This document shows positions 29,845-63,932 of a stretch of DNA of 64,000 bases, in pieces; position 1 is the first letter of the stretch, and every line of letters starts with the position of its first letter. Source of the stretch: an uncultured delta proteobacterium (GTDB lineage: Bacteria > Desulfobacterota > Binatia > UBA9968); NCBI GenBank assembly GCA_963804165.1, contig CAWDPO010000037.1, positions 87,876 to 151,875 on the forward strand, in the 5' to 3' direction. The notes beneath the pieces are model-generated. The model saw nothing but the letters and a program-made list of their open reading frames with translations, was not told the DNA's origin and did no database searches. The translations under genes and the position numbers were made by a program.

Positions 29845-32514
29845 CTAACCCATCAATCCTAGATATCTCCAATAGGGAATCGCTGCGACCAATGCGATCA
29901 GGTACGCGACTGCGTAGAAGATGTTGATCCGGCACATCAGTGGGTAGGAAAATCCTTTACCGTCGGTGGTCGAGTAGGCAAGCATATGCCAGTCGACTTG
30001 ATAAGGAAAAAACCAGACCTCGGAGGCGATTAAAACGATCATGGCGATGATCCACGGGCTCATGCCGACGTCGATCGACAACGGCAGCAACGCAACGCAC
30101 AGCGTCACCACGGCTAGGAAGCTCGTAAAAACGAGCTTGAGCGCGTAGGTCAACAGGGCGATCACCACAAAGAACCAACCTGGGCTGTCCATGAATGGAA
30201 GAATCATCGGCGAGATCACGTCGACCAGCCATTGATCGATCTTTGCCTGTTTCAAAAGCGTCGGAATGCTCAAGGTCACGCCCATGTGGATCAACAACTC
30301 CCAGTCGATGCCCTTGCGCAACATGTTCCAATCGACGATGCCGGTGTTGACCAGCGTGGCGAAGGCGATGATCGCGATCCAGGCGCCGTCGATGCCATGG
30401 TACGGCGCGGTGAGCCAACCTCCTACGGTGAAAAGCAGCACGCCCAGACTGATCCACTCTTTATGCGATAACTTTCCAAGAACACTGAGCTGAGTTTGCA
30501 CCATCGTGTAAGAAATCTTGGGTTGAGTTTCGGGCCGGTAGAGAACGACTGCGCAGAGCAGAATAACGACGATGACCGCGAGGGTGGGCGGCAAGGCCGC
30601 GAGGAACCAATAGCCCCAGGTGAACTGCGCGCGCACGTCGTCGGGCAACAAGCCCCAGGCGATCAAGCTGGTCGTCGATCCGGTCAAGAAGAGAAACCCC
30701 AGTTGACCCAGGCCGAGGAAGCTGGCGACGAATAGGCCGGTCGACGCTTTCGATGGAGTTTTGTAGCCCAAGCTTTCGGAGAGATTGACCAGCATCTGGC
30801 TGGTAATCACGGTGCGCGCGGTCTGCTGCGGAATCAACGCCATCACGACGACACCCATGAACCCGGTAGCGATGATTTGCCAATAGTAACTCAACGGAAA
30901 CATGCGGACGAGATGAAGCGAGAGGCGGTAAAATAATCCGGAGCCGGTGATCGCAGCGCCCAATCCCAAAACCCCGAGCGTCATGAACCAAGTGGTGCTG
31001 GCGAAGCCGCCCATGACCGTCTGCGGCGATTCCAACTTGGTAAGAATGATGACCATGGCGAATGCCAGCGCGACACCGTAGTCGGGCAGCACCCGGAAGA
31101 CCCAAAAGATCAGCGTGCAAGAAATTAAACCAAATAATTTGGTTGCGCTGCTGTCCATGCCGATATCCGGTTGGCCAAACCAAAGATAACCGCCAACGGC
31201 CAAACCGAGCACGGCGCCGAGCCACTTACTGAAAGACGAAGAGCGGAGAACAGAGCTCAATTTAGATGCGAGGCGATCTCGCCGAAACGTCGTTCCACTC
31301 TCGGGAATCGGTAGTGCAGAGAAGCCGGGGCGACTTTTTTCTTGCGGGTTTTCTCGGAAACTATCCGAGACGGCGGCTTCTTGGCCGATCAAGTTGAGCG
31401 CGCTGCGCAGGTGGTTGATCGCCTGTCCGTAATCTTTTCGTTGCGCCAGGGTCTCCGCCATGCGGCGGTAGTTGGCAATGGCGTCAGCCGCGACCGCGCC
31501 CGGCGCCTTCTGGACCAACACCTCACGATAGGCCCGATACGCGCCGAGCAGGTCGCCCAGCTGAATCAAGGCATTTCCCCGAAGGGTGACCAGCCGCGGA
31601 TCGGCCAAAAATTGCTCCGGAGGAAAACTCTCCAGAGAATTTTTGACGAACAGCGGTGACTCGGCGAGCAGGTGCTCATTTTCGGCGGTGAGGAGCCGGG
31701 TGACGGTTGGCCAATCTTGGATCTGTAACGCGTGATAGATCGCCTCACGCAGCTCACCAAGGGCTTCATAGCGTTCGGCAAACTCAGCATGCAGGCGCTG
31801 CTTGGTCTCCGCGCCGTCGAGCGTGAGCAACTTTTCGTGCAAAAAGTCTTTAAAAAAACCGTGCAGCTCGTAGTTGCCATTTTCCAAGCGACGAATCAGC
31901 GGCGATTGGCTGTAGCCGAACTCGGTCACGAGTTTGGTCAGCGCGTGGTTTTTCACCAGCGCCGTTAAGGTATTTTTATCAAGTGCACCGAGCAGCGATA
32001 CCTGACGAAAAAATGACTGCTCGTCCGGCGATAGCGATGCGTAGAACTCTTCTGCAAGCGAATTGAAAGCTTCGCGCCCGGTCGAATACTGCCGATCGAC
32101 ATGGGAAAGCCGTTTGCTGAGCGTGGTGCAAAACTGCAGCAACCAAGTCGGATGCTTTTCGATCAATTCATCCCAATCCTCGCGCCGGAGCCGCCAAAGA
32201 ACGGTATCCTTGACCGTGTCTATCGTTGCCGAGCGGGGTTCGCCCGAAAGCAAAGCCATTTCGCCGAACCAATCCCGTGGTCCAAGAATGGCGACGATCT
32301 CCGATTTTCCCGCGCCACTTTCCAACACGACTTGCACGGCGCCGGATTGAATCAAGTAGAAAGCGTCGCCTTGCTCGCCTTGTGAAAATATCGTCGCTCC
32401 GGCGCCGAACGATGTCTCTTCCATTTTGCCGAGGATTTTGGCGACATCTTCGCGCGAAAGCCCGGAGAAGATCGGGATGCTGCGAATGGTATCGGCGAGG
32501 GCGAGGTGTTCCAT
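29845..32514 (-). CDS. cNMP-binding domain + TPR-like region + DASS/SLC13 permease fusion
   Basis: N-terminal CAP_ED (FGEMALL..EPRSAT), helical TPR-like middle, C-terminal multi-TM region with FLTGSTT. Confidence 0.85.
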   Translation of the reverse strand: MEHLALADTIRSIPIFSGLSREDVAKILGKMEETSFGAGATIFSQGEQGDAFYLIQSGAVQVVLESGAGKSEIVAILGPRDWFGEMALLSGEPRSATIDTVKDTVLWRLRREDWDELIEKHPTWLLQFCTTLSKRLSHVDRQYSTGREAFNSLAEEFYASLSPDEQSFFRQVSLLGALDKNTLTALVKNHALTKLVTEFGYSQSPLIRRLENGNYELHGFFKDFLHEKLLTLDGAETKQRLHAEFAERYEALGELREAIYHALQIQDWPTVTRLLTAENEHLLAESPLFVKNSLESFPPEQFLADPRLVTLRGNALIQLGDLLGAYRAYREVLVQKAPGAVAADAIANYRRMAETLAQRKDYGQAINHLRSALNLIGQEAAVSDSFRENPQEKSRPGFSALPIPESGTTFRRDRLASKLSSVLRSSSFSKWLGAVLGLAVGGYLWFGQPDIGMDSSATKLFGLISCTLIFWVFRVLPDYGVALAFAMVIILTKLESPQTVMGGFASTTWFMTLGVLGLGAAITGSGLFYRLSLHLVRMFPLSYYWQIIATGFMGVVVMALIPQQTARTVITSQMLVNLSESLGYKTPSKASTGLFVASFLGLGQLGFLFLTGSTTSLIAWGLLPDDVRAQFTWGYWFLAALPPTLAVIVVILLCAVVLYRPETQPKISYTMVQTQLSVLGKLSHKEWISLGVLLFTVGGWLTAPYHGIDGAWIAIIAFATLVNTGIVDWNMLRKGIDWELLIHMGVTLSIPTLLKQAKIDQWLVDVISPMILPFMDSPGWFFVVIALLTYALKLVFTSFLAVVTLCVALLPLSIDVGMSPWIIAMIVLIASEVWFFPYQVDWHMLAYSTTDGKGFSYPLMCRINIFYAVAYLIALVAAIPYWRYLGLMG

Positions 32515-32526
32515 CGTGCTGCGACG

Positions 32527-33558
32527 CTATCGAATGACTTTGTCCGCCTTTTTCAACATCGCCTGGGAGAAATGGAAGCCGATGAAGTTAGCGGTTCGGT
32601 AATTGAGCGTGAGATCGAACTTGGACGCCCGCTCGATCGGTAGGGATGGCGGCTTCTCGCCTTTGATGATCTTATCGATGAGGCTGGCGCCCTGACGGCC
32701 CATTTCGAGATAGCTCGGCCCGTAGGCGGCTAGGGCGCCGCGAATCGCCCATGCTTCCTCATTGAACATTGTCGGCAGTTTCCTTTCGCGCGCCGTGGCG
32801 AAAATAAAATCCGGCTCGCTTTCGAACAGGTCGTCGGCGACCTGAAAAAGCGCCGCGCCGGGTTCGGCACGCAAGCTGGAAAGCGTCGTTTTCAATTCAT
32901 CGGCTGACTTGATCCCGTAACCGACAATCTGCAAGCCGGACTTTTTTGCCGCAGCTTCGGCGGCGGCAAAATTACTCCGTGAAAAGTTATTATTGGCGTC
33001 ATAGAAGACCAGAATCTTTTGTAGCTCGGGGAAGATTTCTTTAAAAAGCACGACACGCTGTCCGGTCAGCGCCGAGGCATAGGCCGCCACCCCGGTCAGA
33101 TTTTTCTCGCGCTCCCCGGTGCTTTTGACTAAACCGGCAGCGACCGGGTCGCCGGGAAGGATAAATACGATGGGAATTTCCCGGGTGGCCGCCATCGCCG
33201 CGCGCGTCGCGCTGGTCCCGGTGGTAAAAATGACGCTGACGTTGCGTGCCAAGAGCTCGCCGGCTGCCGGCTGCAGCGCGGCGCGGTTGCCTTTGACGTT
33301 GCGCGTTTCAAAAAAAAAGCTCTTCCGCTCCTGATAACCGAGGCGTTTGAGTCCCTCGCCCAGGCCCTTAATGGCCTGGGACTGGGCACGTTCCATCTCC
33401 TGCACCAGTATCCCCACGCGGGTCGGCGATTGCGCCAGCGCGAAAAGCGGAGCGCCAAGGATAAGCATCAGCACTGTGGTGCAACTCAGGAACATGTTCG
33501 GTCGGCTATCGCCATCCGGTGCGATCTTTTCGGTTTGCGGATAAATATTTCGCGTCAA
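32527..33558 (-). CDS. ABC_sub_bind-type periplasmic binding protein
   Basis: DPVAAGLV..NLTG and YGPSYLEMG..LPIE motifs, ending ADKVIR; start may be about 33495. Confidence 0.88.
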   Translation of the reverse strand: MTRNIYPQTEKIAPDGDSRPNMFLSCTTVLMLILGAPLFALAQSPTRVGILVQEMERAQSQAIKGLGEGLKRLGYQERKSFFFETRNVKGNRAALQPAAGELLARNVSVIFTTGTSATRAAMAATREIPIVFILPGDPVAAGLVKSTGEREKNLTGVAAYASALTGQRVVLFKEIFPELQKILVFYDANNNFSRSNFAAAEAAAKKSGLQIVGYGIKSADELKTTLSSLRAEPGAALFQVADDLFESEPDFIFATARERKLPTMFNEEAWAIRGALAAYGPSYLEMGRQGASLIDKIIKGEKPPSLPIERASKFDLTLNYRTANFIGFHFSQAMLKKADKVIR

Positions 33559-33571: not shown

Positions 33572-34508
33572 TTAGAGAAGATTGATGACCATCCCTTCGT
33601 GGGCGACGACGGTCGAGCTAAAAAGTCGCTTTGGCCTGCTTCTGAATATTTTTCATCGTTTTGTCGTCGTGAGTCGGTTCGTGATGGAAGAGCGCGAGGC
33701 GTTTGACACCGGCCTTTTGCGCCACATCGACGGCCATGTCGATGGTGCTGTGACCCCAGCCCTTGCGCGGTTTGTCTCGCGAGGAGTATTCGTCCTGAAG
33801 ATACTGGGCGTCATGGATCAATAAGTCCGCGCCGCGGGCAAACTCTATGACTTCGGGATAGCCGCCTTCTTGCTCTTCGATATCCGTGGCATAGACAAAA
33901 CTCTTGTTCTTGTAGTGGACCCGATACAGCATGACGCCGTTTAGCGGGTGCGCGGCGCTTTTACAGGTCGTCACCGTCAGCTCCCCAGCTTCGACGCCGT
34001 CGGCGGCTCGAGGTCCCTCGATCTTAGGTCGTCTGCCTGCTGATCCGAAGCGAATCACCTCGTCGCCGGAGAGTGAGAAAATTTCTTTCTTTCCTTTGAG
34101 CTCATCGAGCGAAACGGGGAACAGATGGCTGTTGGTCAAGTGGCGCAGGCTTCGAGTCAGCGCTCCGCGGCTAGCGCCGGGACCCAGAATAAAAGTCCGT
34201 CCCGCGGCCGTCAGCAGGGGCTCGAAAAAACAAAGTCCCAATACATGGTCGATATGGGTGTGGCTCAAAAAAACATACGCCGCGGGAGGTGACGCTGCGC
34301 CGTTGCAAAGTTCCTTTCCAAGCGGAATGATTCCCGTGCCGGCGTCGAAGATCAACCGTCGACCGTCGACCTCGACTTCGACGCAAGAAGTATTTCCGCC
34401 GACTCCGAGAGTCGAGGCGGCGACGGTGGGATAGCTTCCGCGCACGCCCCAAAATTTAAGACTGAAGCGACCCGCGGTGCTGGCAAGCGGCTGAGATCGG
34501 TTGTTCAT
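33572..34508 (-). CDS. MBL-fold metallohydrolase, probable cyclic-nucleotide phosphodiesterase
   Basis: FWGVRGS, GGNTSC, SHTHIDH, WGHS and FHHEP motifs. An extra T in the run at about 33620 truncates the natural ...VAHEGMVINLL end. Confidence 0.85.
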
Positions 34509-34517: not shown

Positions 34518-35600
34518 TTACCTGGCGCCGGTCACATTGAATGCTAGAATTGGCCGGCTGATGCCCTTGAGATTAAGCTCTTGGATCGATTCCGCGGTGA
34601 AAGCATTTTCCAGCCGGCTCATGGTTTTTTGATCGGTCAGAATCTGTCCACCCTTTGCCTCGGCGCACAAGCGCGCCGCCAAGTTCGGCAAGTTGCCGAC
34701 TGTACCGTAATCCATTCGGCCTTCAAAGCCCATGGTTCCCAGTGTCGCATAGCCGGCCGCAAATCCCACGCCCAGGTCCAAATTGTAGCCCTTCTTCAGC
34801 CACGACGTGCGCAGCTCTTTCACTCGGTCCTGCATCTCGACGGCCATGCGCGCCGCTTTGTGGACGTGCTCCTCGCATGGAATCGGGTCGTTGAAAATTA
34901 CCACAATCCCGTCGCCCACGAAACGCTCCAACGTGCCTTCGTATTTGAAAACCAGCTTGCCCATTTCTTCATGGTAATGGCGCAGGAAGTCCATCACTTC
35001 TTCGGGCTCGGCGTTGTCGGAGAAAGCCGTAAAGCCGCGCAGATCGAGAAACACGATGGTAATCTCGCGCCGGTGGGTCTTGAACACGTCATCATCCTGA
35101 CCCAGGATGGTCTCGGCGATTTGCGGCGAAAGGTAACGCTTGAGGCGGGCCATACGCTGGAGCTCGCCGACTTGCTTTTTCACCGTGTCCGCCAGCGTGC
35201 GGTTCCACTCTTCGAGCGTGTCGTGCATCTCTTTGAGCCGCATCATCGCGCGTACCCGCGCCAAAAGCTCGAAGGAATCGAACGGCTTGGTCACGTAATC
35301 GTCCGCGCCGGCGTCGAGGCCGGCGACTTTGTCTTCCTGGGTCGCCTTGGCCGTGAGCAGGATCACTGGAATACCTTTGTGCTCTGGGCTGCCTCTCAGT
35401 TGCTTGACGACTTCGAGTCCGTTCATCCGCGGCATCATGTAATCGAGCAATATCACATCCGGCTTAAAGCTCGCAGTTTTTTCCAGCGCCTCGACGCCGT
35501 CGGCGGCTCTTTCAATCCGATAGTCATAGTCCATCAGTTCTTGCTCGAGCAGATCGAGATTGAACGGCTCGTCGTCGACGATGAGAATTTTATTGGCCAT
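34518..35600 (-). CDS. Receiver domain + class III nucleotide cyclase
   Basis: REC domain (MANKILIVDDE), then FLDLRGFT, FVGDG and NLAARLC. Confidence 0.93.
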   Translation of the reverse strand: MANKILIVDDEPFNLDLLEQELMDYDYRIERAADGVEALEKTASFKPDVILLDYMMPRMNGLEVVKQLRGSPEHKGIPVILLTAKATQEDKVAGLDAGADDYVTKPFDSFELLARVRAMMRLKEMHDTLEEWNRTLADTVKKQVGELQRMARLKRYLSPQIAETILGQDDDVFKTHRREITIVFLDLRGFTAFSDNAEPEEVMDFLRHYHEEMGKLVFKYEGTLERFVGDGIVVIFNDPIPCEEHVHKAARMAVEMQDRVKELRTSWLKKGYNLDLGVGFAAGYATLGTMGFEGRMDYGTVGNLPNLAARLCAEAKGGQILTDQKTMSRLENAFTAESIQELNLKGISRPILAFNVTGAR

Positions 35601-35604
35601 AAGC

Positions 35605-35979
35605 TTAACCAAGGTACTTTTTGATCTTTTGGAGCAGCGCGTCTTCGTCAATCGGCTTTGGCAGGTAATCGTCGCAGCCTGCCTTGCGCGCGTCGATCTC
35701 GTCACCGACCATGGCATGGGAAGTCACGGCGATGATGGGGATATGCTTGAGCGCATCGTTCGCTTTTAGCCGTCTCGTGGCTTCCCACCCGTCCATCACC
35801 GGCATGCCGAGGTCCATCAAAATCAGATCAGGTGCATCTTGCTCCGCCGCCTTGACGCCCTGTTCGCCGTCGACTGCTTCTAACACAGTGTATTCTTCTT
35901 CCAATAGCTGAACGAGCAAGTCCCGGTTCCAGTCAGTATCATCGACCACGAGGATTTTTTTTTTATCCATCAGGTTCAC
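35605..35979 (-). CDS. Single-domain response regulator (DivK-like)
   Basis: LILMDLGMPVMDG, AVTSHAMVGD and AGCDDYLPKP motifs. Confidence 0.93.
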   Translation of the reverse strand: MNLMDKKKILVVDDTDWNRDLLVQLLEEEYTVLEAVDGEQGVKAAEQDAPDLILMDLGMPVMDGWEATRRLKANDALKHIPIIAVTSHAMVGDEIDARKAGCDDYLPKPIDEDALLQKIKKYLG

Positions 35980-35987
35980 CCTATAAA

Positions 35988-36018
35988 ATTTTGGATTTTG
36001 GATTTTCGATTTTCGATT
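35988..36018. repeat. Heptamer array (ATTTTGG/ATTTTCG)x4, left arm of inverted pair
   Basis: 29/31 complementary to 36460-36490. Confidence 0.95.
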
Positions 36019-36064
36019 GCCAGAAGGTCGGATTAAATATTCAACCGTTGCAGTTGGAAAATCG

Positions 36065-36422
36065 TCATCTTCGTCCTCGAAGTGTTTTGATCGATGCGAC
36101 GGTCATAGCAATGATCTCGTGAGATTCCCTTTAGCAAATCGGTTCACTTGTGCTTCCGGAACAATCTCGGCCTCGACGAGCAATTCAAGCCAATAAATGG
36201 TTTCGTCTGCTTCTTCTTCGACGATCGCGAGTTTTGCAAGGACGTCCGCCGGCGAATTTCCACGGCACGCCGACGCGATAATTGGCTCCGACCGAAGTGC
36301 CAGAACGAAGCAATTGCCTACCAACGACATCGGCCGTTCGGGCTCGCGGGTAGTGATTCGACAATTCAATTACCGAAGCGCTAAGCTACTTGGTCCGCTC
36401 GCTTGAAAAGTTGTTCGTCCAT
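36065..36422 (-). CDS. Four-helix-bundle protein (23S rRNA IVP / Avd-like family), several indels
   Basis: Reconstructed across frames: MDEQLFK.RTK..A..VIEL...ADVVGRQLLRSGTSVGANY..ACRG.SPADVLAKLAIVEEEADETIYWLELL...EIIAMTVASIKTLRGRR. Confidence 0.8.
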
Positions 36423-36459
36423 TTTTTGTCGCGCTTTACTGGGTCTGAGGTCCCTGTTC

Positions 36460-36490
36460 AATCGAAAATCCAAAATCGAAAATCCAAAAT
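36460..36490. repeat. Heptamer array (CGAAAAT/CCAAAAT)x4, right arm of inverted pair
   Basis: Direct reading AATCGAAAATCCAAAATCGAAAATCCAAAAT. Confidence 0.95.
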
Positions 36491-36495: not shown

Positions 36496-39451
36496 TTATC
36501 TTCGAAGTTCCATCGGCAAAGTGATCGTGAACTTCGATCCTTTGCCTTCTTCGCTCTCGACGACGATTTCGCCGCCCATAAGATTGATGAATTTTTTCAC
36601 GATGGCCAAGCCTAAGCCGGTGCCGCCGTATCTCCGCGTGCTCGACATATCGGCCTGGCGAAACTCGTCGAAGATGTATTTAAGCGCATCCTGGTTCATA
36701 CCGATGCCGGTGTCTGACACGGTGAGCTTTACGGAACCGTTGTCGCGCCAGGCGGTGACTTTGATCTCGCCGCGCTCGGTAAACTTGACCGCATTGCTCA
36801 GGAGGTTGAGCATGGATTGCTTGAGTTTGTCCCGGTCGGTTTTGAGCGGCGGGATATCCGAGGCGATCTCGGTGACCAGTTTGACGTTTCCGTTTCTAAG
36901 TAAGCGGTTCGACCGTGGTCGTCGCGACCCGCAGGATTTCGTCGAGCTTGAACGTTTCGGCGAAGACCTCCATGCGCCCCGCTTCGATCTTCGCCAGATC
37001 GAGCAGCTCGTTGATCAAACTGAGCAGATGATCCGAGCTGATGAGGACTTTTTGCAGGTTTTCTTTTTGTAGGGCTTCGATTTTTCCCTCGGTGCGGCGC
37101 AAGACTATTCTCGTGAAGCCGATAATCGAGTTGAGCGGCGTGCGCAGCTCGTGGCTGACGTTGGCGAGAAATTGCGATTTGTGCCTATTCGCGGTTTCGA
37201 GCTGGGCATTTTTCTCTTCGAGTTCTTGGAACAAGCGAACATTCTCGATGGCGATCACCGCCTGGTCGGCGAAAGTCTTGAGTAGTGAGATTTGACTTTC
37301 CGTGAATGGCCGAATTTCTCGCCGGTAGACGGCGATGGCGCCGACCAGAGTATTTTCCTTAAGCATCGGAACCGCAAGAACGGTTCGGATTCCCTCGTTG
37401 CGGTATTCTTCCGGAGGGTGCCACTCGGGATCGGCGGAAACGTCGGGGATGTGAATGATTCTCTTTTCCAATGCAACGCGGCCGACCGCCGTTCCCCGGT
37501 CCGGCGGAAATGTTCTATCCGCCAATGTCGTCATCTGCGGGGAAACATACTGAGCCGTAGCCAGACGGAAAACCTCGCCATCAAATCTAAAAATGGCGCC
37601 GTAGTCGGTACTGCCCAGACGCGTTGCGTTGCCGAGAATGGTTTCAAAAACGGGTTGGAGGTCTCGCGGCGAGCTGCTGATCACGCCCAAAACTTGGCTC
37701 GTCGCAGTCTGTTGCTCCAACGACTCGGTGAGCTCACTGTTCTTCTCCTGGATCTCCTGAAAGAGCCGAACGTTTTCTATAGCGATCACGGCCTGGTCGG
37801 CGAATGTCTTAAGAAGAGCGATTTGCTTGTCGTTGAACGGACGGACCACCGTACGGCGGATATTGATTACGCCAATCGGTATCCCTTCCCGCAGCAACGG
37901 TGTGGTCAAAACAGTCCGCACGCCGCTGGCCTGTTGTCTAGATTTCGATCCGGGGAAATCTTTTTCCACCTCTAACGCGAGATCATGGACGTGAATCGTC
38001 GTCTTGTCGATTACCGCTCGACCCGCAGGTGTTCCACGAGTGATCGTCGGAACCGACGTCGTAAACGGAATCGAGCCATGTCCGGCTACGCGCTGCAGAA
38101 CTTCCCCTTCGATAAGAAATATCTGTGCATCCTCGGCATCACACAGCCGCGCCGCTCGTTCCGCGACGACGTCGAGAACCGGCTGAATATCCGTTGGCGA
38201 GCCGGCGATCACACCGAGGATTTCGCTCGTCGCCGTTTGCTGCTCCAGTGATTCTGTCAGTTCGCGGGTGCGGTCTTCGACCTTTTGCTCCAGGTTGGTG
38301 TAGGACTCCTGCAGCTGAGATGTCATCTTGTTGAACTCGTCGGCCAGCACTTCGATCTCGTCGCCGCTCTTCAGATTGAGACGATAACCGAGATCACCGG
38401 TGCCGATGCGTTCGACACCTTCACGCAAGCGGCGCAACGGATAGACCACGCGCCGCGCCAGAAAGAAGCTGGCGATCAGCGCCATGCCGAGACCGATCAA
38501 GAACAAGATGGAGGTTCGCAGCATCGAGGCGTAGAGCGCCTCGTAGGCTTCTTCGACGGGACGGTCGACGATAATCGCCCATTCGAGCCCCGGAACGAGC
38601 GCATAGGAGCTCAACACGTCTTTGCCTTGAATATTCGGCGCGACAATGGCGATGCGGCCCGGAGCGGCGGGAGCGCTGTCGAAGGCTGCTCTTGCGGCGG
38701 CGACTTCGCGGATATTGCGCCGTTGCAAAACCAGGCTGATATCGGGATGAGCGATCAGCTCGCCGCCGCGGCTGATGACATAGGCGTACCCCGCCTTGCC
38801 GATCGTGAGGCTTGAGACCACGTCGCCGATGTACTTGAGGTTGACCTCCGCTTGCAGCACGCCGATCACGTCGCCGGCAAAGCGCTCGATGGGCACGGCG
38901 ATCGTCATATAGGGCTCGGAGCCGCGGACAAAGTAGACGCGCCCGAAGTAGGACTTGCCTTCTCGCGCTCGCTTGAACGCGTCTACCGCCGCGAGGTTTT
39001 TCTTGGCGTCGGGCAAAACGGTGCGCAGGCGCGACGCTTGCACCTGGATCACCCCTTCTTGGTTGAGTGCCACCGCCTCGGTGATCGCCGGCGCAATCAG
39101 CAGGAGCTTTTCCAGCTCGAAGCGAAAGTCCGGTGTGAGTCCCTTGGGCGCGATGTCGCGGCTCTTGGTCGCGCCCTTGAGCACGTTGTGGATCTCTTGC
39201 ACGAAGTGTTCGATCTTGAAGGCCGCGCCGGAAGCGATTTCCTTTTGCTGGAGAGCCAGTTGCTCGCGGCTCTCGTGATAGCGAAAATAGATCTCGACGA
39301 GGCCGCTGGTGATCAGACCGCCGCCGATGAACAGCACGGATATCAGAAAATAATCGCGCACCAGGCGACCGCGGCGCTGGGGCTCGGCACGGCGACGAGA
39401 CAGCCATTGCGGAAGTTTTTCTTTCCAATGGGTCATAGCCGAGGTCAACAT
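36496..39451 (-). CDS. Sensor histidine kinase: TM-dCache-TM-HAMP-GAF-GAF-HisKA-HATPase (frameshift at about 36900)
   Basis: IAHPD Cache motif, HAMP, two LEQQTATS/FADQAVIAIEN GAF repeats, SHELRTPL; NAVKFT and GTGLGL lie in the shifted frame. Confidence 0.92.
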
Positions 39452-41179: not shown

Positions 41180-41238
41180 GAACCTACTCCTGTGTTCTTG
41201 CCGCTCTTTGCTCCTTGCCCTTTGCTCCATGCTCCCTG

Positions 41239-53002: not shown

Positions 53003-53057
53003 ATGTGGTCTCTCATTTCTTGCACTTGCCTCTTTGCCCTATGCGCTTTGCGATTTT

Positions 53058-54044: not shown

Positions 54045-54134
54045 GAATTTTCCTCACTCTAACCCTCTCCTCGGGGCGACGGTACTTGAGATCGTCAATC
54101 GATTCTTTCGAGGCCTTTGATTGGAATCTCGAAA

Positions 54135-54340
54135 CTAGTGTCCTGTCTCAGAAGTTCGCGACATAATTCTCGCGTCATTCCGTCGGAAAATCTCCCCTTC
54201 CCCTCTTTGGCAAAGAGGGGTGAGAATCGCACGGAGAAAATTCCCCCTTTGAAAAAGGGGGACAAAGGGGGATTTGAGTTCAATTTCAGTGGCTGCCATC
54301 GTTTGGACTTTTTAAACGAACTTCTGAGACGCCACACTAG
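54135..54340. mobile_element. MITE (about 200 bp) with 24-bp TIRs including flanking CTAG, carrying REP-like palindromes
   Basis: CTAGTGTCCTGTCTCAGAAGTTCG ... CGAACTTCTGAGACGCCACACTAG; internal CCCCTCTTTGGCAAAGAGGGG and CCCCCTTTGAAAAAGGGGG. Confidence 0.8.
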
Positions 54341-54361
54341 AAACCTGAAACTCGAAACTTT

Positions 54362-55420
54362 TCATCGGATCACCCGGTCTGCCCGCGCCAGCACATTCGG
54401 TGGGATCGTCAGGCCGATCTGCTTGGCGGCTTTTAGATTGACGATGAATTCAAATTTCGTTGGTTGTTCCACGGGTAGATCGGCGGGCTTGGTGCCCTTC
54501 AAAATCTTGTCGACATAGGTGGCGGCGCGTCGGTCCAAGTCTGAAATGCTCACGCCGTAGCTCATGAGCCCGCCGTCTTCCACAAATTCCCGCCTGGGGT
54601 ATGTCACCGGGAGCCGGCTCTTTAGCGCGAGGTCTGCAATCTGTGCTCGCTGAGCATTGAAAACGGGACTCTGCAGCACAAGGAGTGCGTCAGCGCGCTC
54701 CTTGCCTGCGGCTCGGAATGCAGTCTCAATATCCTGGGGGTTTTCTATATTTAGGTATTGAACCTTCATCGCGAACGCCCCCGCGACGAGTTCCATCTCT
54801 TTTAAAGCTTGTGCGGTGCCCTGTCTGGTCGAAGTCCCGATGACAGCCACTCGGTTAAGCCGGGGAACGATTTCTTTCAGAAGCTCCAATTGTTTTCCGC
54901 TTATCTCCGGGGCAAGAGTCGACAATCCGGTAACGTTTCCGCCGGGTCGCGCCAGACTGACGACGAAGCCGCTGCCGACCGGGTCATCATCAAACGTCAT
55001 GACAATGCGGAATCGTAGAAGTTGCTCCTTTAGCGGGACGAGTTGCTGTTGGACCACTGGTGACGATGACGTCAACATTGAGCCGCACCAACTCGGCTGC
55101 GAGCGCGGGGAGCCGATCGAGTTTTCCCTCTGCATGTCGCCGCTCAATGAGGATATTTTTCCCCTCCACGTACCCGAGTTCTCGCAGACCCTGCTGGAAT
55201 GCATCCATGCGCGGTGCAATTACCGCAGGTGAGGAAGTGATGAGAAATCCTATGCGGGGAATTTGCGTTTGCTGCTGCGCCTCGGCCGCGGCCCAACCGC
55301 ACGAGCACTGTGAGAGCGATAGCGAAGAGCCGCCGCCAATTTTCGATTTTGCGATTTTAGATTTTAGATTATCGGATCAAGAATTCAAGAAATCGCTTTG
55401 AGCCAAGATTTTTCATTCAT
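54362..55420 (-). CDS. ABC_sub_bind SBP paralogue 11 (frameshifted), near-identical to paralogue 12
   Basis: Pieces 54990-55208 and 54362-55219; degraded leader. Confidence 0.8.
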
Positions 55421-55464
55421 GATTTTCTCCCCTAATCGAAAATCCTAAAATCGAAAATCTAAAA

Positions 55465-56517
55465 TTACTTGATCTACTCCGATCCGCTCTGGCCAGCACG
55501 TTCGGTGGAATGGTTAATCCGATCTGTTTCGCCGTTTTGAGATTGATGATGAACTCGAACTTCTTCGGCTGTTCGACGGGAAGATCGGCGGGCTTGGTGC
55601 CCTTCAAGAATCTTGTCGACATAGGTGGCGGCGCGTCGGTCCAAGTCAGAAATGCTCACGCCGTAGCTCATGAGCCCGCCGTCTTCCACAAATTCCCGCC
55701 TGGGGTATGTCACCGGGAGCCGGCTCTTTAGCGCGAGGTCTGCAATCTGTGCTCGCTGAGCATTGAAAACGGGACTCTGCAGCACAAGGAATGCGTCAGC
55801 GCGCTCCTTGCCTGCGGCTCGGAATGCAGTCTCAATATCCTGGGGGTTTTCTATATTTAGGTATTGAACCTTCATCGCGAACGCCCCCGCGACGAGTTCT
55901 ATCTCTTTTAAAGCTTGTGCGGTGCCCTGTCTGGTCGAAGTCCCGATGACAGCCACTCGGTTAAGCCGGGGAACAATTTCTTTGAGAAGCTCCAATTGTT
56001 TTCCGCTTATCTCCGGGGCCAGAGTCGACAATCCGGTAACGTTTCCGCCGGGTCGCGCGAGACTGACGACGAAGCCGCTGCCGACCGGGTCATCATCAAA
56101 CGTCATGACAATCGGAATCGTAGAAGTTGCTCCTTTAGCGGGACGAGTTGCTGATGGACCACTGGTGACGATGACGTCAACATTGAGCCGCACCAACTCG
56201 GCTGCGAGCGCGGGGAGCCGATCGAGTTTTCCCTCTGCATGTCGCCGCTCAATGAGGATATTTTTCCCCTCCACGTACCCGAGTTCTCGCAGACCCTGCT
56301 GGAATGCATCCATGCGCGGTGCAATTACCGCAGGTGAGGAAGTGATGAGAAATCCTATGCGGGGAATTTTCCCCTGCTGCTGCGCCTGAGCCGCGGTCCC
56401 AACCGCCACGAGCACGAAAGCGATGACCGAAAGCCGCAGCCATTTTGGATTTTGGATTGCCGATTTTGGATTATCGGATCGAAACCAAGTGAGTTCGCTT
56501 TGAAATGTCTTAATCAT
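55465..56517 (-). CDS. ABC_sub_bind SBP paralogue 12 (frameshifts near the C-terminus)
   Basis: ORF 55474-56538 plus a shifted tail 55413-55622. Confidence 0.85.
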
Positions 56518-56561
56518 ATCTTGGGACCCCAAATCCAAAATCTAAAATCGAAAATCCACAA

Positions 56562-57548
56562 TTACTTGACAACCCTATCTCCTCTCGCCAGCACGTTCGG
56601 TAGAATCGTCAGACCGATCTGTTTGGCGGCTTTTAGATTGATGATGAGCTCGAATTTCCTCGGCTGCTCCACCGGAAGGTCGGCGGGCTTCGCGCCTTTC
56701 AATATCTTGTCCACGTAAGTAGCGGCGCGCCGGTCTAAGTCCTCGATGTTCACGCCGTAGGTCATAAGCCCGCCGGCCTCCACAAAGTCTGCCCTGTGGT
56801 ACATCGCAGGGAGGCGGTTCTTTGCCGCGAGTTCTGCAATCTCGGTCTGGTGATCAGCGGCAACGCGGCCCGGCAACAGCATAAGGACCGCGTCAGCACG
56901 CCCCTTGGTTGCAGCTCGGAACGCGGGCTCAATATCCTTGGGACTTAGGACGTCTAGGTATTGAAGCTTCACTCCGAACGCCTTGGCGACGAGCTCCACT
57001 TCTTTTAACGATTGTGCGTTACCCGGCTGGGTTGAAGTCCCGAACACTGCCACACGAGAGAGTTTGGGCACAATCTCCTTCAGAAGCTCCAACCGTTTTC
57101 CGCTCAGCTCCGGGGCAAGGGTCGACAATCCAGTAATGTTCCCGCCAGGTCGGGCAAGGCTGGCGACGAACCCGCTCCCCACGGGATCGGCGTCCTGCGT
57201 CATGACAGTAGGAATCGTACCGGTCGCTTGCTTGGCAGCCCTCGTATCAGGCGGGCCGGCCGTGACAATGACGTCCACGTTAAGACGAACCAGCTCAGCC
57301 GCGAGCGCGGGGAGGCGATCGAGTTTTCCCTCTGCATATCGCCATTCAATGATAATGTTTTTCCCCTCGACGTATCCAAGCTCGCGCAGTCCCTGCCGGA
57401 ACGCCTCGATGCGGCCTGGGCTAGCGGAAGGGGAGGTTGCAATTAGGTGTCCTATCCGTGGGACTTTTGTCGGCTGCTGCGCCTCGGCGGGTGGGGCAGT
57501 TGTCAGAAGGATAGTTGCCAGTAACCCGATGAGAAGTTTTGCCGCCAT
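56562..57548 (-). CDS. ABC_sub_bind SBP paralogue 13
   Basis: Intact 328 aa. Confidence 0.92.
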   Translation of the reverse strand: MAAKLLIGLLATILLTTAPPAEAQQPTKVPRIGHLIATSPSASPGRIEAFRQGLRELGYVEGKNIIIEWRYAEGKLDRLPALAAELVRLNVDVIVTAGPPDTRAAKQATGTIPTVMTQDADPVGSGFVASLARPGGNITGLSTLAPELSGKRLELLKEIVPKLSRVAVFGTSTQPGNAQSLKEVELVAKAFGVKLQYLDVLSPKDIEPAFRAATKGRADAVLMLLPGRVAADHQTEIAELAAKNRLPAMYHRADFVEAGGLMTYGVNIEDLDRRAATYVDKILKGAKPADLPVEQPRKFELIINLKAAKQIGLTILPNVLARGDRVVK

Positions 57549-57589
57549 GAATCTGTTCCTACTGTTGCCTGTTGCCTCGTGCCTACCGC

Positions 57590-58577
57590 CTACTGTCGCA
57601 TCGCCTCTTCTACATAGGTGTTATCGAATGATTGGCGCACATCGAACTGCTTGGCTTTCGGATGTTCGACGAACTTGAGCGCATTGGTCATCGCTTTCTC
57701 GATGACTCTAAGCGAACTCGGGAAGGCGTCCTTGTAGAATTCGAAGCTGCCTTGCAGCAACGCGTCATCGTCGGTTCGGGTAAATTTTCGCAGCGCGCGC
57801 TTGGTTGCCGCGGCATTTTCCCTGGCAAGCTGTTGTCCTTCATTGAGCGCGCGTAGAAACTCGACCGCGACCTTGCGATTCTTGGGGTCCTTGAGCCAGG
57901 ACTCGCGCGCTCCGATGACGGCGGTGGGAAAGAGGCCGTATTCGGTCTGCAAAGGCCGGAACAGCAGATTAAATCCCGCGTTCTTGGCGCTGAGCCCGAA
58001 AGGATACCCGATCATGCAGACATCGACACGGCCGCCGACGAGGGCGGCGTAGGATTCGCCAACGCCGCCATTTTGGATGAACGTGACTTCGGTTGGCTTC
58101 ACCCCGCCCGACTCCAACATCGACAGCGCCGAGAAGTAGCTCGATGCGCCGAAGCGCGTGACCCCGATTCTCTTGCCTCTGACATCGCTGATGGATTTGA
58201 TTTCGGGCTTCGACCAACCATCGATTGTGAGGACGGGCAAGGGCGAGGCGATGGCGATCAAGTCACTGCCGCTGAGTCGGCTGGCGATGATCGCGCCGCC
58301 GCCGGTGTAGCCGATGGGAAATTCTCCGGCGAGGATCGCCGAGTTGATCAGCGGCGAGCCGCCCATGAATACGGGGAAAATATCGTAGCCGTGTTTCTGA
58401 AAAATTTTCTCTTCCACGGCGATGTACAGCGGGATCGCCGCGCCCCCGATGGGCGTGTAGCCGACGGTGAGCTTTTGCAAGTCCTTTTGCGCCGCTTGTG
58501 CGCCGACGCTTAGACAACGATGCCGTTACCAGGAAGGTTGCAAACCACCAACGTGGATCTCTCGCTTTCATGGTCAT
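57590..58577 (-). CDS. NitT/TauT (NMT1/SsuA-like) substrate-binding protein (frameshift in leader at about 58500)
   Basis: PLYIAVEEKIFQKHG, DVRGKRIGVTRFG and FDNTYV motifs; the signal peptide is in the 58263-58577 frame. Confidence 0.85.
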
Positions 58578-58688
58578 CCTCCCGTCCTAAAATTTTGGAT
58601 TTGCGGACGAAGATTTCGAACGAAATAGCTTCATAGAGTCGGGTCTCCTGGCTTTCAATCCAAAATCTAAAATCGAGAATCTAAAATA

Positions 58689-59677
58689 TCATCTGATGAC
58701 TTTGTCCGCTCTGGCCAGCACGTTCGGCGGGATCGTGAGACCGATCTGCTTGGCTGTCTTCAGATTGATCACGAATTCAAACTTGGTCGGTGCTCGATGG
58801 TTAGGTCGGCCGGCTTCGTACCCTTAAGTATTCTGTCTACGTAGTATGCGGCGCGTCTGAAACTCTCAGTATCGTAGTCTGAATACGATATTAGACCGCC
58901 GGCCTCTACAAAATCACTGCTCTCGTTCATTGATGGCAGTCGACTCTTTATGGCAAGGTCTGCAATTCGCCGCATGTTTCGAGTGAGTACGGAACTTCTA
59001 ATCGGAATGATCGCACCGGCACGCTCCTTAGCCGCGGTGTGAAATGCGCGTTCGAAATCAAGGTTCAGGGCCCGTAGCTCCAGGGACTGAAGATTTATCT
59101 TTAGCAAGCGAGCAGTAGCCTCATACTCTTTAAAAGCAATAGTCGGCCCTGGCCCGTTCCCATCCCAGAGGACTCCGACGCGAGATACTTTCGGAACCAC
59201 CTCCTTGAGCAGTTCCAGTCGTTTTCCGATTAGGTCGCGGGTGAGTCTGGTGAGCGCCGTGATATTTCCCCCAGGTCGCGCCAGGCTATCGATGAGCCCA
59301 GTCGCGACCGGATCCTGAACTGTCACCATGACAACAGGAATCGTCTTGGTCGCTTGCTTGGCTGCGAGGATCCCTCCTGTAGCTTGGGAGACAAGGATAT
59401 CTACCTTGAGTTGCACCAGTTCGGTCACAAGGCTTGGGATACGGTCCGGCTTTCCTTCAGCAGAGCGAAACTCAATCACGATGTTTTTCCCCTCAACATA
59501 ACCGAGATTCCGCAACCCCTGCCGGAATGCCTCAAGGTTCGGTGAGGGAGAAGAGAGATCGCCAGTTACTGTTACGTATCCTATCCGCGGAGCTTTCGTT
59601 GGCTGTTGCGCCTCGACAGAAAAGCAGAGCGCAAAGAGCATGGCGCAAAGAGTAAGGGCCGTGATTTTTTTCTTCAT
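58689..59677 (-). CDS. ABC_sub_bind SBP paralogue 14 (frameshift at about 58790)
   Basis: ORF 58769-59677 plus a tail ending ADKVIR at TGA 58689. Confidence 0.86.
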
Positions 59678-59724
59678 GTCTTTTTTCTGTCTCGATTGAC
59701 TTGCGACGTGACACTAACCCCGTC

Positions 59725-60798
59725 TCACTTGATCACCTTATCCGCCCGGTACAGCACGTTCGGCGGAACTGTCAGGCGGATCTGCTTGGCCGCCTTAAGG
59801 TTGATCACGAGCTCGAACTTTATCGGTGCTTCCACCGGCAGGTCAGCCGGCTTCGTGCCCCTTAGGATCTTGTCAACGTACGTCGCGGCCCGCCTGTGCA
59901 TGCCCGAGTAGCTTGGCCCATAGGACATCAAGCCACCCGCCTCGACCAACTCCACATAAGCATGCACGCCTGGTAAGTGGTTTTGGGTGGCGAAGTCCAT
60001 GATGCGCACGCGGTGGTGCAGGAACAGTCGGTCTGCTAACACGAGGAGCGCACCTGGTCGTTCTCTGAGAATTGTCGCAAATGCATTGTCGAACTGCTCC
60101 TCGGCTTGCACCCCCAGCGACAGCACTTTTATTTTCATTGCATGAGCAGCCGCCTGTGTCTCCTTTTCCCCCGCCACCTGCAAGGGGCTGGTGGGATTCC
60201 AGAGCACCGCAACGTGCGAGATTTTAGGGACCACTTCCCTGAGCAACTCCAACCGCTTCCCGTCTAGCTCCGGTGAGATCGAGGTCAACCCGGTGAGGTT
60301 TCCACCAGGGTGGGCGAGACTCGCGATGAGGCCCGACCCCACGGGGTCCCCGACGGCGATCATGACAAGGGGCAGCGTCGTTGTCGCCTGCTTGAGAGCG
60401 ATCGTGGCGGGTGTGCCGGCGGTAACGATCAGTTCGACCTTCGAGGCGATCAGCTCCGCGATGAGGGCAGGAAAGCGCTCGTACTTTCCTTCCGCCCATC
60501 GCCACTCAATGACGATGTTTTTACCCTCGACATAGCCAACGTCATGCAACCCTTCGCGAAAGGGCCCGATCAGATTTGCCTCCAGGGCAGCGGTAGAGTT
60601 TCCCAGGAAACCGATCCGGGGGACCTTCCCTTTCTGCTGCGCCTCAGCCGTTCCCACACACCCCACGAGCAGGACGAGGATTAGAAGAAACCCCACCCAT
60701 TTTAGATTTTGGATACTTCGACTCAGCTCAGTACAGGTTTTAGATTTCCGATTATCAGAGCGAGAATTTGGAGATCGCATCCAGGTTTTCTCATACAT
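59725..60798 (-). CDS. ABC_sub_bind SBP paralogue 15
   Basis: Intact; N-terminus NRKSKTCTELSRSIQNLK derives from heptamer + REP sequence. Confidence 0.92.
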   Translation of the reverse strand: MYEKTWMRSPNSRSDNRKSKTCTELSRSIQNLKWVGFLLILVLLVGCVGTAEAQQKGKVPRIGFLGNSTAALEANLIGPFREGLHDVGYVEGKNIVIEWRWAEGKYERFPALIAELIASKVELIVTAGTPATIALKQATTTLPLVMIAVGDPVGSGLIASLAHPGGNLTGLTSISPELDGKRLELLREVVPKISHVAVLWNPTSPLQVAGEKETQAAAHAMKIKVLSLGVQAEEQFDNAFATILRERPGALLVLADRLFLHHRVRIMDFATQNHLPGVHAYVELVEAGGLMSYGPSYSGMHRRAATYVDKILRGTKPADLPVEAPIKFELVINLKAAKQIRLTVPPNVLYRADKVIK

Positions 60799-60844
60799 TT
60801 GTTTTTCTCCTCAATCTAAAATCGGCAATCGAAAATCTAAAATA

Positions 60845-61827
60845 TCATCTGATGACTTTGTCCGCTCTGGCCAGCACATTCGGCGGAATCGTCAGTCCGA
60901 TCTGCTTGGCGGTTTTGAGATTGATGATCAGGTCGAATTTTACGGGCCGCTCGACAGGCAGATCGGCCGGCTTGGTACCCTTGAGGATTTTATCGACAAA
61001 GGTCGCGGCGCGCCTATACATATCCGCATCATTTGGTCCGTAAACCATCAGGCCGCCGGCTTCGGCAAATGGAATTTGCCCATGGATTGTTGCGAAGCGG
61101 TTCTTGATGGCGAGGTCTGCCACTCGCGTTCGGTGCGTGAAAGTGACCGGATCACCGATAGTCATGAGGGCTCCGACGCTGTTCTTTTTTGCTGCCTGAA
61201 ATATATTGTCTAGATCGTTGGGTCCACGTATTTCCAAAACTTGAATTTTTAACGCTAGCGACTGCGCCGCAAGTTCGGCATCTTTCAATGCGTCCGCGGT
61301 GCCCAACATGCCGGGGTTGCGAAGAACCGCGACGCGGGAGAGCTTGGGAATCGCTTCTTTGAGCAGCTCCAGACGTTTGCCATTTAACTCTTCGGCGTTG
61401 GAAGTGAGGCCCGTAATGTTGCCCCCTGGCCGGGCCAAACTTGCGACCAACCCGGTTCGAACTGGGTCGGCTTCATACGCGAGAACAATGGGAATTGTTC
61501 CAGCAGCTTCTTTTGCTGGACGCGTCGCAAGGGGACCTCCCGTAACGATGACATCGACTCTGAGCCGAGCCAGTTCTTTGGCGAATTCACGAAGTCGGTC
61601 GAGGTTGTCTTCAGCATAGCGATACTCTACGAGGATGTTTTGGCCTTCAGTGTAGCCTTGCTCGCGCAAACCTTGCCGAAACGCTTCGACTCGACCTAAC
61701 ATGGAAGCGGCCGAACCCACTGACAGAAAACCTATTCGTGGAACTTTTTTTTGCTGCTGCGCCTCAATGCAAAGCAAAGCGCCAAGAGCACAGCGTTGAG
61801 AGTCAACCCAAAGATCTTTTTCTTCAT
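60845..61827 (-). CDS. ABC_sub_bind SBP paralogue 16 (frameshift in signal peptide at about 61770)
   Basis: MKKKIFGLTL leader joins ORF 60845-61777. Confidence 0.86.
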
Positions 61828-61864
61828 CCTTTTTCTCTCACGCCTTCCGCCTCACTCATCACGC

Positions 61865-62931
61865 CTATCGAATCACCCTATCCGCTCGCGCCAGCACATT
61901 CGGCGGGATCGTGAGGCCGATCTGTTTGGCCGTTTTTAGGTTGATGACGAACTCAAACTTTGTCGGTTGTTCCACCGGGAGATCGGCGGGCTTGGTGCCT
62001 TTGAGAATCTTGTCGACATAAATTGCGGCGCGCCCATCCAAGTCGGGCAAGTGGACGCCGTAGACATAAGCCCTCCGTCTTCGACATTTTCTCGCCTGCT
62101 GTACAGCGCCGTAAGACATCAAGCCCCCGCGCTCGACAAAGTCTTCGCGAAAGTGGATCGCCGGCAAGTGGTACTTGGCCGCCAGCTCAGCGATCTGTTT
62201 TTGATAGTTAGTGAATAACCGATGGCGCGACACAGCGAGCGCCGCACTACGGGCTTTAATGGCCCCTTTAAAAGCACTCTCATACTGGTCGATGGTGCTT
62301 ACCTCCATGGAGTGAAGTTGCAGCCCCAGTTGCCGCGCCGCAAGCTGGCTTTCTTTCCATTGTGGCTGGTTGTCAGAAGAACTTGGGTTCCACAAAACAG
62401 CGACGTGAGAGAGTTTGGGTATGGATTCCTTGAGTACTTGCAGCCGTTTGCCAGCTAGAACATCGGCCATCGAATAAAATCCCGTAATGTTGCCTACGGG
62501 CCGAGCGAGGCTGTCCACCAAGCCTCGCGCCACCGGATCGGAGTTGGAATCCGTGAAAACGATGGGGATCGTTTTGGTTCCTTCTTAGCGGTCATAGCAT
62601 CGTTTGGACCGTCCGCAATAATGAGATCGACCTTGAGACGAACCAGCTCATCTGCCAGAGCGGAGAGCCGCTCGGGTTTCTCCTCTGCGTTGCGAAGCTC
62701 GAAGACGATGTTTTTAGATGTATCCGAGCTCGCGAAGCTCTCGTCGAAGTGTGTCTACGTTGAATCTGGAACTAGATAAAGCGCCGGACAATCTTCCGAC
62801 GCGATAAACTTTCCGGGCTGCTGTGCATCGGCGGAAACGCGGAGCGCAAACAGCAGGGCGCAAAGTACGAAGCCAGAAAGTTTGATTCTCTTACTGTTGC
62901 CTGTTGCCTCGTGGCTAATGCCGCTGATCAC
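61865..62931 (-). pseudogene. ABC_sub_bind SBP paralogue 17, multiply frameshifted and chimeric
   Basis: GTG-coupled leader MISGISHEATGNSKRIKLSGFVLCALLFAL; duplicated GGLMSYG segment. Confidence 0.75.
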
Positions 62932-63932
62932 TTGATCACCCGATCCGCCCGGTACAGCACCGATTGCGGAATCATCAGGCCGATCTGCTTGGCGGTCTTG
63001 AGGTTAATGACGAATTCAAACGTCGTCGGCTGTTCTACCGGCAGGTCACCGGGCTTGGCCCCTTTGAGGATTTTGTCGACGAAGACAGCAACGCGGCGCG
63101 CTCAGTATAGCTGATTAGGCCCGTATAACATCAAGCCGCCTCCTTCCGGAAATTTCCTTCGTCCGACATGGTCGGCAGGCGGTTTTTTAGCGCGAGATCC
63201 GCGATCTTTTCCCTGTCCGAGATTGCTAATAAAGAGTGGCTCAATAATAAGCGCCCCGGCTCGCTCTTTGGTCATGGCCGAACGCGCTTTCAATCTCGTC
63301 GACAGCGGTTATTACCAACGGCTGAAATTTCATTCCCAATCTTTCAGCTGCCTGTTGCGCTTCCTTGACAAAGAGCTTGTGCGCCGGATCCGGTGCGTAG
63401 GCCAGGAAGGCCACGCGTGAAAGCTTAAAAAGAATCCTCTCAGCAGTTCCAATCTCTTGCCCGCCAACTCCGGCATGATGTTGGTCACGCCGGTCATATT
63501 CCGCCCGGTCGAGCCAAGTTGGTGACAAATCCGCTCCCTACCGCGTCTGCAACTCCGAACATCACGATCGGGATGGTCGTCGTCGCATTTTTAGCGGCCT
63601 GCGCCGCAGGGGTGGCTCTTGCGACGATGAGTTCCGGTTTCAGCCGCACTAGCTCTTCCGCCAATTCAGGCAGGCGTTCTACCTTGCCGGCCGCAAATCG
63701 GTAATCGATAGTGATGTTCTGCCCGTCGATGTAACCCAGGTCTCGCAAGCCCTGCCGGAAAGCCTGCTCGGGAGCCAAACGGCCGACAAGAAGCAAGAAA
63801 ACCGATCCGCGGGATTTTCTTCGTGTCCTGCGCGTTGGCGAGGACGATCAGCGCGAAGGGTAGGATGCAGGACAGAATACAGTAGTAGAGACTCTTTCTA
63901 ACTTTTGAACGCTGTCTACTGACTTCTTTCAT
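62928..63932 (-). pseudogene. ABC_sub_bind SBP paralogue 18, multiply frameshifted
   Basis: Fragments 63666-63995, 63494-63796, 63241-63528 and 63102-63293 carry successive SBP motifs. Confidence 0.78.

Follow-up and report, generated by a model that had tools for sequence, protein, structure and literature searches.

A transporter-free array of PF04392 binding proteins in a Binatia genome as a candidate binder set for dCache_1 sensors

A stretch of 64,000 nucleotides from an uncultured, soil-type member of the Binatia (UBA9968; GenBank assembly GCA_963804165.1, contig CAWDPO010000037.1, positions 87,876 to 151,875), called the window below, carries an array of 18 co-oriented minus-strand genes for periplasmic binding proteins of family PF04392 (40185-63932), near a sensor kinase with a periplasmic dCache_1 domain and a cyclic-nucleotide signalling operon. 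The array is a candidate binder-stimulated receptor system, and is probably a variant of binding-protein-stimulated dCache signalling in which many binders are connected to few sensors. Its genes would represent a transporter-free branch of PF04392 whose proteins supply ligand binding, as a separable component, to a sensor made of two parts. The linkage of such binders to one subfamily of dCache_1 sensors, read from genome sequences of three phyla, is far beyond chance and supports a sensory role. Partnership at the level of the single binder-sensor pair is likely from this gene order; the many-binder, few-sensor reading as a whole is modestly favoured, and that the partnership extends to most of the paralogues is a little better than an even call.

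Association with dCache_1 sensors

The sensor loci comprised the best 80 of 240 confirmed dCache-domain loci, and 58 of them had 1.5 kb of upstream sequence. At 48 of these 58 informative loci an array-type gene was found within 1.5 kb upstream on the same strand, against a background of 32 such upstream neighbours for 3664 long frames of the source genome. The original prediction had assumed a single transducer, but the source genome has two sensors of this subfamily; both have an upstream binder, which none of its other five dCache_1 genes has. The closest named homologues of the window kinase were mostly from Candidatus Binatia and 'Deltaproteobacteria' bins.

Genome G142 (100% complete) contains three PF04392 genes and three sensors, all paired and each no more than 1 kb apart, and in G017, which belongs to another family, six tandem binders are immediately upstream of the sensor. 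A lone array-type binder, 60% identical, was seen in a distant same-phylum genome (L152:5716-7038, G053), with no dCache match in the 8 kb covered, the remainder of that genome not being searched. A class-wide draw of 71 genomes gave matches to the sensor query only in six genomes of the source family, with no more than four PF04392 genes elsewhere. Among 31 genomes of a Methylomirabilota-class sample the sensor was present in 11, with a binder directly upstream at 6 of 16 sensor loci; two of the genomes paired in this way had no other PF04392 gene. Binder counts were 7-34 in eight of these 11 genomes and exceeded five in none of the 20 genomes without sensor.

In 72,556 plasmids the binder and sensor queries independently picked nearly the same records. 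The sensor was found in 52 of them, with the binder directly upstream in 42 and nearby in another order in six (one by annotation only); the remaining four were absent from the binder listing (hand count). The simplest form is the lone two-gene unit of R. johnstonii 3841, made up of RL_RS30325 (PF04392) and RL_RS30330 (dCache_1-HAMP-cyclase), and no permease was found near this or the other rhizobial pairs. On pRL11 (L193:910-10080) the rhizobial binder-cyclase pair is situated between Ku and ligD genes.

The outputs of the paired sensors varied from kinases with 0-3 GAF domains to a hybrid kinase and cyclases. Two divergent dCache clades (six and four pairs) each matched a binder clade of their own (supports 0.85 and 0.98), and the source genome has neither sensors nor binders of these two deep clades. 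In the main clade the sensor-adjacent binders were on average 43% identical, like the whole family, so they are not one orthologue and the slot beside the sensor is filled by varied members, even if adjacent copies cluster somewhat (the nearest neighbour was also adjacent in 30 of 52). A dedicated single clade of sensor-adjacent binders was considered and rejected on this mean identity and the tree.

The dCache_1AA domains, direct amino acid sensors such as PctA, carry the motif YxxxxRxWY...Y...D (PMC8915833). The array-linked sensors share the dCache_1 fold with them, but the YxxxxRxWY part was missing from their alignment consensus (by eye).

For docking of a binder on the dCache domain, which the original prediction had proposed, complex prediction gave weak support. 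The score was 0.45, with 0.00 for the best of three controls, contacts that agreed by at least 81% between runs and a partner pLDDT of at least 86. Among solved complexes 116 of 157 attained this mark, as did two of 215 mismatches; at scores of 0.60 or less only 18 of the 157 did so, along with both mismatches, counts that hold roughly since own alignments were used. Passes at such a score are more often wrong than right unless the interaction is likely beforehand, and this pass may reflect likeness, because fold-level analogues such as LuxP-LuxQ are already solved.

Conserved and variable surfaces of the binding proteins

A profile built from 10 window paralogues recovered the 18 units and one further gene at 32527-33558, exactly as originally counted, with PF04392 scores in the window of up to 199.6 bits against a curated cut-off of 25.9. 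The array proteins are members of PF04392 outside the aromatic amino acid importer group (TrpX/CD0873 type). For NCBIfam NF041285 the score was 151.9 against a cut-off of 390 bits, and a permease-linked control was likewise below it (280). The signal peptide motif A-x-A|Q, on which alone the export call is based, was present in 68 of 70 single-frame genome copies and a lipobox in the other two. The model of unit 13 showed a class I two-lobed fold (pLDDT 95; TM 0.88-0.89 to 3LKV, 3LFT and 6HNI), and the nine single-frame window paralogues were 39-68% identical in pairs.

Alignment of the paralogues bore out the conserved and variable regions named from the sequence. The CD0873 selectivity positions E263 and Y279 fall in columns 251 and 267, which rank with the most variable columns of 65 non-redundant paralogues, while 12 permease-linked domains (three from one triple-domain protein) have D in 10 and Y in 11 in the same columns. 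Cleft-loop identity, with the cleft assigned from secondary structure and CD0873 residues, was 0.19 in the array and 0.53 in these 12 domains, at a similar overall divergence (50% vs 46%). In place of the conserved pocket that one shared ligand would imply, the array has hypervariable pocket positions, and each paralogue, having its own cleft residues, probably closes on its own small molecule.

The outer helices and the C-terminus behaved in the opposite way, with an identity of 0.79 in the array and 0.41 in the 12 permease-linked domains, although the regions compared were picked after the array profile had been seen. In unit-13 numbering, residues of this fixed surface include K151, K157, Y263, R273, D279, K280, K286 and D289. 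Amino-acid identity of the fixed segments was 0.77-0.83, compared with 0.39-0.41 at four-fold sites and a background of about 0.35; since silent sites were near background in most of them, these segments are under protein-level selection. In the last 25 codons silent identity was raised to 0.51, indicating some DNA homogenisation; homogenisation as the only cause of the conserved gene ends was rejected by this silent-site comparison. Nearly all genome copies kept 15-23 of 23 diagnostic fixed-surface positions and rhizobial partners 14-18, against 0-4 in transporter-linked domains. The fixed outer surface is the putative docking face; the [13 protein letters not shown] motif, with a column identity of 0.73 in the array and 0.56 in transporter-linked members, is partly common to both and is not in itself a docking signature.

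The fixed surface might instead serve another partner, a membrane protein or self-association, with the dCache linkage reflecting co-regulation or an insertion hotspot. A complex prediction that returned no interface, head-to-tail double-domain forms among the longer homologues, and clusters that end at a variety of gene types (one of them just downstream of a receiver and a cytoplasmic poly-GAF kinase) agree with this possibility, which is nevertheless judged the least probable of the three alternatives, because the pair persists where gene order, orientation, output domain or phylum differ, and the deep clades match.

Of 189 longer homologues, the best 120 were mostly head-to-tail double PF04392 proteins. 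P0077, in which PF04392 is joined to kinase domains, looks chimeric. Six long open frames proved to be single binders at the frame end, and two further ones were remote family members whose tails matched no Pfam family. A triple-PF04392 protein beside a cognate permease was seen in a same-class genome (L192:822-3833), and G165 and G201 had long open frames with several PF04392 matches.

Transport functions

In agreement with the original prediction, no ABC importer permease or ATPase was found among the array open reading frames scanned in the window. A cognate permease, which would have argued for transport, was not found in the source genome either (81% complete), where the PF04392-linked permease query had no match and the ATPase was not searched separately. 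In 41 family genomes this permease was strong in two and weak in three more, while PF04392 and the dCache subfamily were each present in 40. The 11 PF02653 permease matches of the source genome were tandem pairs distant from PF04392 genes.

Alternatively, the paralogues could be transport binders that use a shared transporter in trans, either the secondary transporter of the DASS family with a cyclic nucleotide (cNMP)-binding domain encoded in the window (cNMP-DASS; TRAP/TTT-like) or LivH/M-type permeases. A DASS gene at the same locus, present in 31 of the 41 family genomes and kept beside a PF04392 gene, is in line with this, as are the PF02653 matches, and one transporter for many binders has been proposed for orphan TTT binding proteins in passages of PMC5994714. 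Nevertheless, the alternative is improbable: the DASS-adjacent PF04392 gene belongs to a separate clade, the PF02653 pairs are away from PF04392 genes, and the rhizobial pairs have no nearby permease. DASS had no match in G142 or in any of five outside genomes with binders and sensor (incomplete genomes, searched without positive control), which makes it an improbable general partner.

For the gene at 32527 alone, a shared transporter is the best guess. It belongs to a distinct conserved subfamily with about 31% identity to the array members, and forms its own clade of eight (support 1.0), with 57-73% identity to its counterparts in relatives, in which its position between the hydrolase and cNMP-DASS genes is kept. 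The end of a PF04392 gene was directly upstream of the DASS gene in 11 of 11 relatives' loci examined. The protein may feed the cNMP-DASS secondary transporter, and together with the cNMP-TPR-DASS protein it is possibly an undescribed binding-protein-dependent, cyclic-nucleotide-regulated transporter.

Copy number and turnover

The source genome (G000; 7.5 Mb, 46 contigs, 81% complete, 5% contaminated) contains 158 merged PF04392 units in 41 clusters, of which 71 were single-frame, 53 split and 34 partial, a count inflated by overlapping haplotype contigs. The window contig (C37) and C38 have three genes in common and then diverge, and an identical copy of one of these genes is found on C6 with other neighbours. 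On C38 the array continues with 26 units and ends at small permease-like, thioredoxin-like and PutA-like genes (labels read from translations). Since this flank is the same as that of the locus in G003 and G004, the window and C38 would be one locus of about 40 genes. Across the 41 family genomes the copy number ranged from 0 to at least 43.

In the window nine units were single-frame (one with a frameshift in the signal peptide), eight were split by frameshifts and one was cut by IS5. A pseudogene reading of the 53 split units of the genome was largely rejected: of the units in short-contig records 113 of 130 were intact, whereas in long-contig ones the figure was 30 of 50 (classes assigned from contig sizes and record series, with contig-end units and eight duplicate or own loci excluded), and many split copies look like long-read errors. 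Frameshifts were also found in 8 of 35 other genes checked as background. A frameshift rate from tblastn best hits (1 of 39 binders) was discarded, since collapse favours intact copies. Real turnover was shown by the IS5 insertion in unit 6, with an empty site in contigs of three of four runs, by recent duplicates and by the copy-number range. In the birth-and-death mode originally proposed, 'death' was overstated, since much of the breakage resembles assembly error.

A period-7 repeat comes after the stop codon in 75 of 129 units, compared with 28 of 597 other genes, and the leader of the next gene mirrors this repeat (inverted-repeat score of at least 10 in 43 of 129 vs 46 of 597). Several unrelated heptamer types occur at the array junctions, mirrored in the next signal-peptide codons, and the start codon sits in the hairpin loop. 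At L155:5776-13759 (G000:C43) a receiver and a cytoplasmic poly-GAF kinase in fragments are followed directly by two array-type binders; such GAF repeats are common in the source genome (132 first-look candidates). NMT1/THI5-like proteins (PF09084) had at least 150 matches there among 456 candidates, and form another expansion of binding proteins that is perhaps the larger one.

The amplification of PF04392 genes could mean that only sensor-adjacent copies are partners, and that the rest arose when conserved gene ends and junctions with repeats recombined, being neutral or buffering ligand with no receptor role. The 39 of 41 clusters that do not end at a sensor, the stop-codon repeats, the identical genes with different neighbours on C37, C38 and C6, the raised silent identity of the last 25 codons and the partial clustering of adjacent copies all fit this explanation. 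It is still unlikely, if the least so of the alternatives, for the surface residues are kept under protein-level selection in nearly all copies, most units in short-contig records are intact, and the sensor-adjacent copies are not one clade.

Signalling operon and neighbouring genes

The features of the window are listed in Table 1. The kinase, receiver, receiver-cyclase and cNMP-DASS genes were present as first described, and the order turned out to be less continuous than supposed. The 203-aa gene lies between array and kinase, which had been thought to adjoin, the four-helix-bundle-like cassette separates kinase and receiver, and the array itself contains the AAA_14/DUF4143, IS5, ParE/Phd and NMT1-like passengers. 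The supposed phosphodiesterase is a metallo-beta-lactamase-fold hydrolase, for which this label is likely but scored below the curated cut-off (44.6 vs 400 bits).

Table 1. Coordinates of the genes and elements of the window
Feature	Position	Strand	Basis or role
Array of 18 PF04392 genes, class I periplasmic binding fold, cleavable signal peptide	40185..63932	-	units, signal motif, fold model
Unit 1, closest to kinase, three frame pieces	40185..41179	-	
Unit 2, one frame	41239..42219	-	
Unit 3, two pieces	42267..43259	-	
Passenger ATPase gene, AAA_14 and DUF4143, frameshifted	43453..44612	-	
Unit 4, three pieces	44773..45757	-	
Unit 5, one frame	45838..46815	-	
Unit 6, split by IS5-family element (~47415-48629; transposase 47572-48522)	46868..49174	-	
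Units 7 and 8, one frame each	49190..51213	-	
Passenger pair, Phd/YefM antitoxin and ParE toxin	51338..51921	-	
Units 9 and 10, one frame each	52016..54044	-	
Units 11 and 12, recent duplicates (96% DNA identity), two pieces each	54362..56538	-	
Unit 13, one frame; representative for searches, fold model and complex prediction	56562..57548	-	
Passenger NMT1-like binding protein (family also expanded in source genome)	57590..58480	-	
Units 14-18: 15 one frame; 16 one frame in mature part; 14, 17 and 18 split	58689..63932	-	
Gene for 203 aa, no Pfam family, separating array from kinase	39571..40182	-	
Sensor kinase, TM-dCache_1-TM-HAMP-GAF-GAF-HisKA-HATPase; periplasmic dCache ~38516-39283 (kinase residues ~57-312)	36496..39451	-	proposed partner
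Four-helix-bundle cassette (23S rRNA IVP-like, below cut-off) between inverted heptamer repeats	36000..36490	-	
Stand-alone receiver	35605..35979	-	
Receiver-class III cyclase; extent of open reading frame, real start probably ~35600	34518..35717	-	
Metallo-beta-lactamase-fold hydrolase, likely cyclic-nucleotide phosphodiesterase	33618..34508	-	
Conserved single-copy member of a PF04392 subfamily	32527..33558	-	
cNMP-binding / TPR-like / DASS-family secondary transporter	29845..32514	-	

The kinase gene, with HATPase as a separate piece, is frameshifted by one surplus base near 36902, and this base was absent from the contigs of relatives in two of four runs. The cassette at 36000-36490, which lies inside the kinase operon, was likewise missing from relatives' contigs in two of four runs, so it behaves like a removable cassette. 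A consensus scan of 29500-49000 gave six promoter-like sites (8.6 expected) and 34 terminator-like sites (23.2 expected, sd 5.4), which was uninformative on co-transcription. A cluster at 16963-29250, with a CHAT/TPR protein, a split CHASE2-cyclase, DUF928, a ShlB-type exporter and a split two-partner-secretion passenger, is an insertion that separates the signalling operon from the conserved dsbD/folE/pepA block.

Proposed signalling route and its weighing

In the many-binder, few-sensor reading each paralogue would be exported by its cleavable signal peptide, as the motif suggests, and would keep the modelled class I two-lobed fold. The near-constant surface is probably the face that meets the periplasmic dCache_1 domain in a single receptor subfamily, as gene linkage and a weak complex prediction suggest, and the signal would pass from dCache through HAMP to a kinase or cyclase. 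At the window locus, judging from the domains, the kinase would phosphorylate the receiver and the receiver-cyclase and so set the cyclic-nucleotide level, which the hydrolase would reset and the cNMP-DASS protein may read. The basic unit would be one binder with one sensor. In the Binatia-like family the binder side would have been multiplied by tandem duplication and reshuffling, to at least 100 copies for two sensors, giving a detector with many inputs and few outputs.

Several observations weigh against this route. The sensor was at the end of only two of 41 clusters in the source genome, which with its NMT1-like set seems to amplify binding proteins in general. No upstream binder was found at 10 of the 58 informative loci, nor at 10 of 16 in the second phylum; the genomes behind unpaired loci (five of five checked) had 7-37 copies elsewhere, which may be compatible with action in trans. 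Two fragmented genomes had one side only: G270 with 14 binder matches and no sensor match, and G242 with a sensor and no binder match at E<=1e-40. Nine Bradyrhizobium plasmid records had the binder and no sensor match on the plasmid (chromosomes were not searched), and the two inspected were rich in insertion sequences. The kin are not independent, since 45 of the 52 plasmid records were from Rhizobium and most loci from one family, and genome size confounds the co-occurrence of binders and sensors. No binder-sensor fusion, that is, no PF02743, was found in the 120 best of the 189 longer homologues, a weak indication. Linked genes can travel together without binding, and neighbouring binding-protein and kinase genes without detectable interaction are reported in PMC11113362.

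Relation to known systems

The LuxP-LuxQ, HptA-HptS, ChvE-VirA, CBP-ChiS and NspS-MbaA systems are alike in a free periplasmic binder encoded beside a dCache-type receptor, and LuxP and ChvE have the same class I fold as the array binders. A review on binder-stimulated dCache-like receptors (PMC8050422) has no mention of PF04392; the receptors it covers have about one binder each, and the most in its list are the three of E. coli Trg. Unlike LuxPQ-like systems, at least 100 paralogues face two sensors in the present candidate system.

VC_1101 (3LKV), SP1069 (3LFT) and CD0873 (6HNI) are described in passages of PMC6816091 and PMC10443332 as PF04392 ABC binders of Phe, Trp and Tyr. The array proteins share their Pfam family and fold, but differ in that no permease or ATPase was found with the array, the pocket motifs are lost and variable, and the fixed outer surface is distinct. 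Orphan expansions of binding proteins are known for the TTT (TctC/Bug) family (PMC9602780). According to passages of PMC5994714, those of Bordetella and Rhodoplanes Z2-YC6860 form tandem arrays, the largest of nine genes, with a proposed sensing role and a binder near 14 of 22 kinases. The present case differs from these in family and in its roughly 40 genes in one locus, and those passages name no single conserved receptor partner. No paper on a PF04392-dCache pairing was found in the literature searched, which covered few subscription papers and main texts only; the supplementary family lists of PMC9602780 or PMC8050422 might change this assessment of novelty.

The likeness to olfaction drawn in the original prediction fits in the many soluble binders and is otherwise loose. 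Many binders converging on one output would lose ligand identity.

Biological significance

A general chemosensory design, in which at least 100 exchangeable, cleft-diversified binders dock by one invariant surface onto one or two dCache receptors, is tentative, standing somewhat short of an even chance. In such a design binders would be gained, lost and reshuffled in tandem arrays, and the rhizobial pair would be its minimal form. A receptor that takes interchangeable binders would, if true, be a ready biosensor scaffold.

Genes of array type, annotated as 'ABC transporter substrate-binding protein', number from tens to more than 100 in a Binatia-like genome; genomes of the Methylomirabilota class and of some Proteobacteria have from several to tens. 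Should these genes be sensory, the transporter label is wrong and the transport capacity inferred from it is overstated; meanwhile the purpose of orphan binding-protein expansions would gain a named partner, with a cultured-strain pair in R. johnstonii 3841. Under the general design above, the cell would alter the compounds it senses by swapping small genes, with the signalling pathway left untouched.

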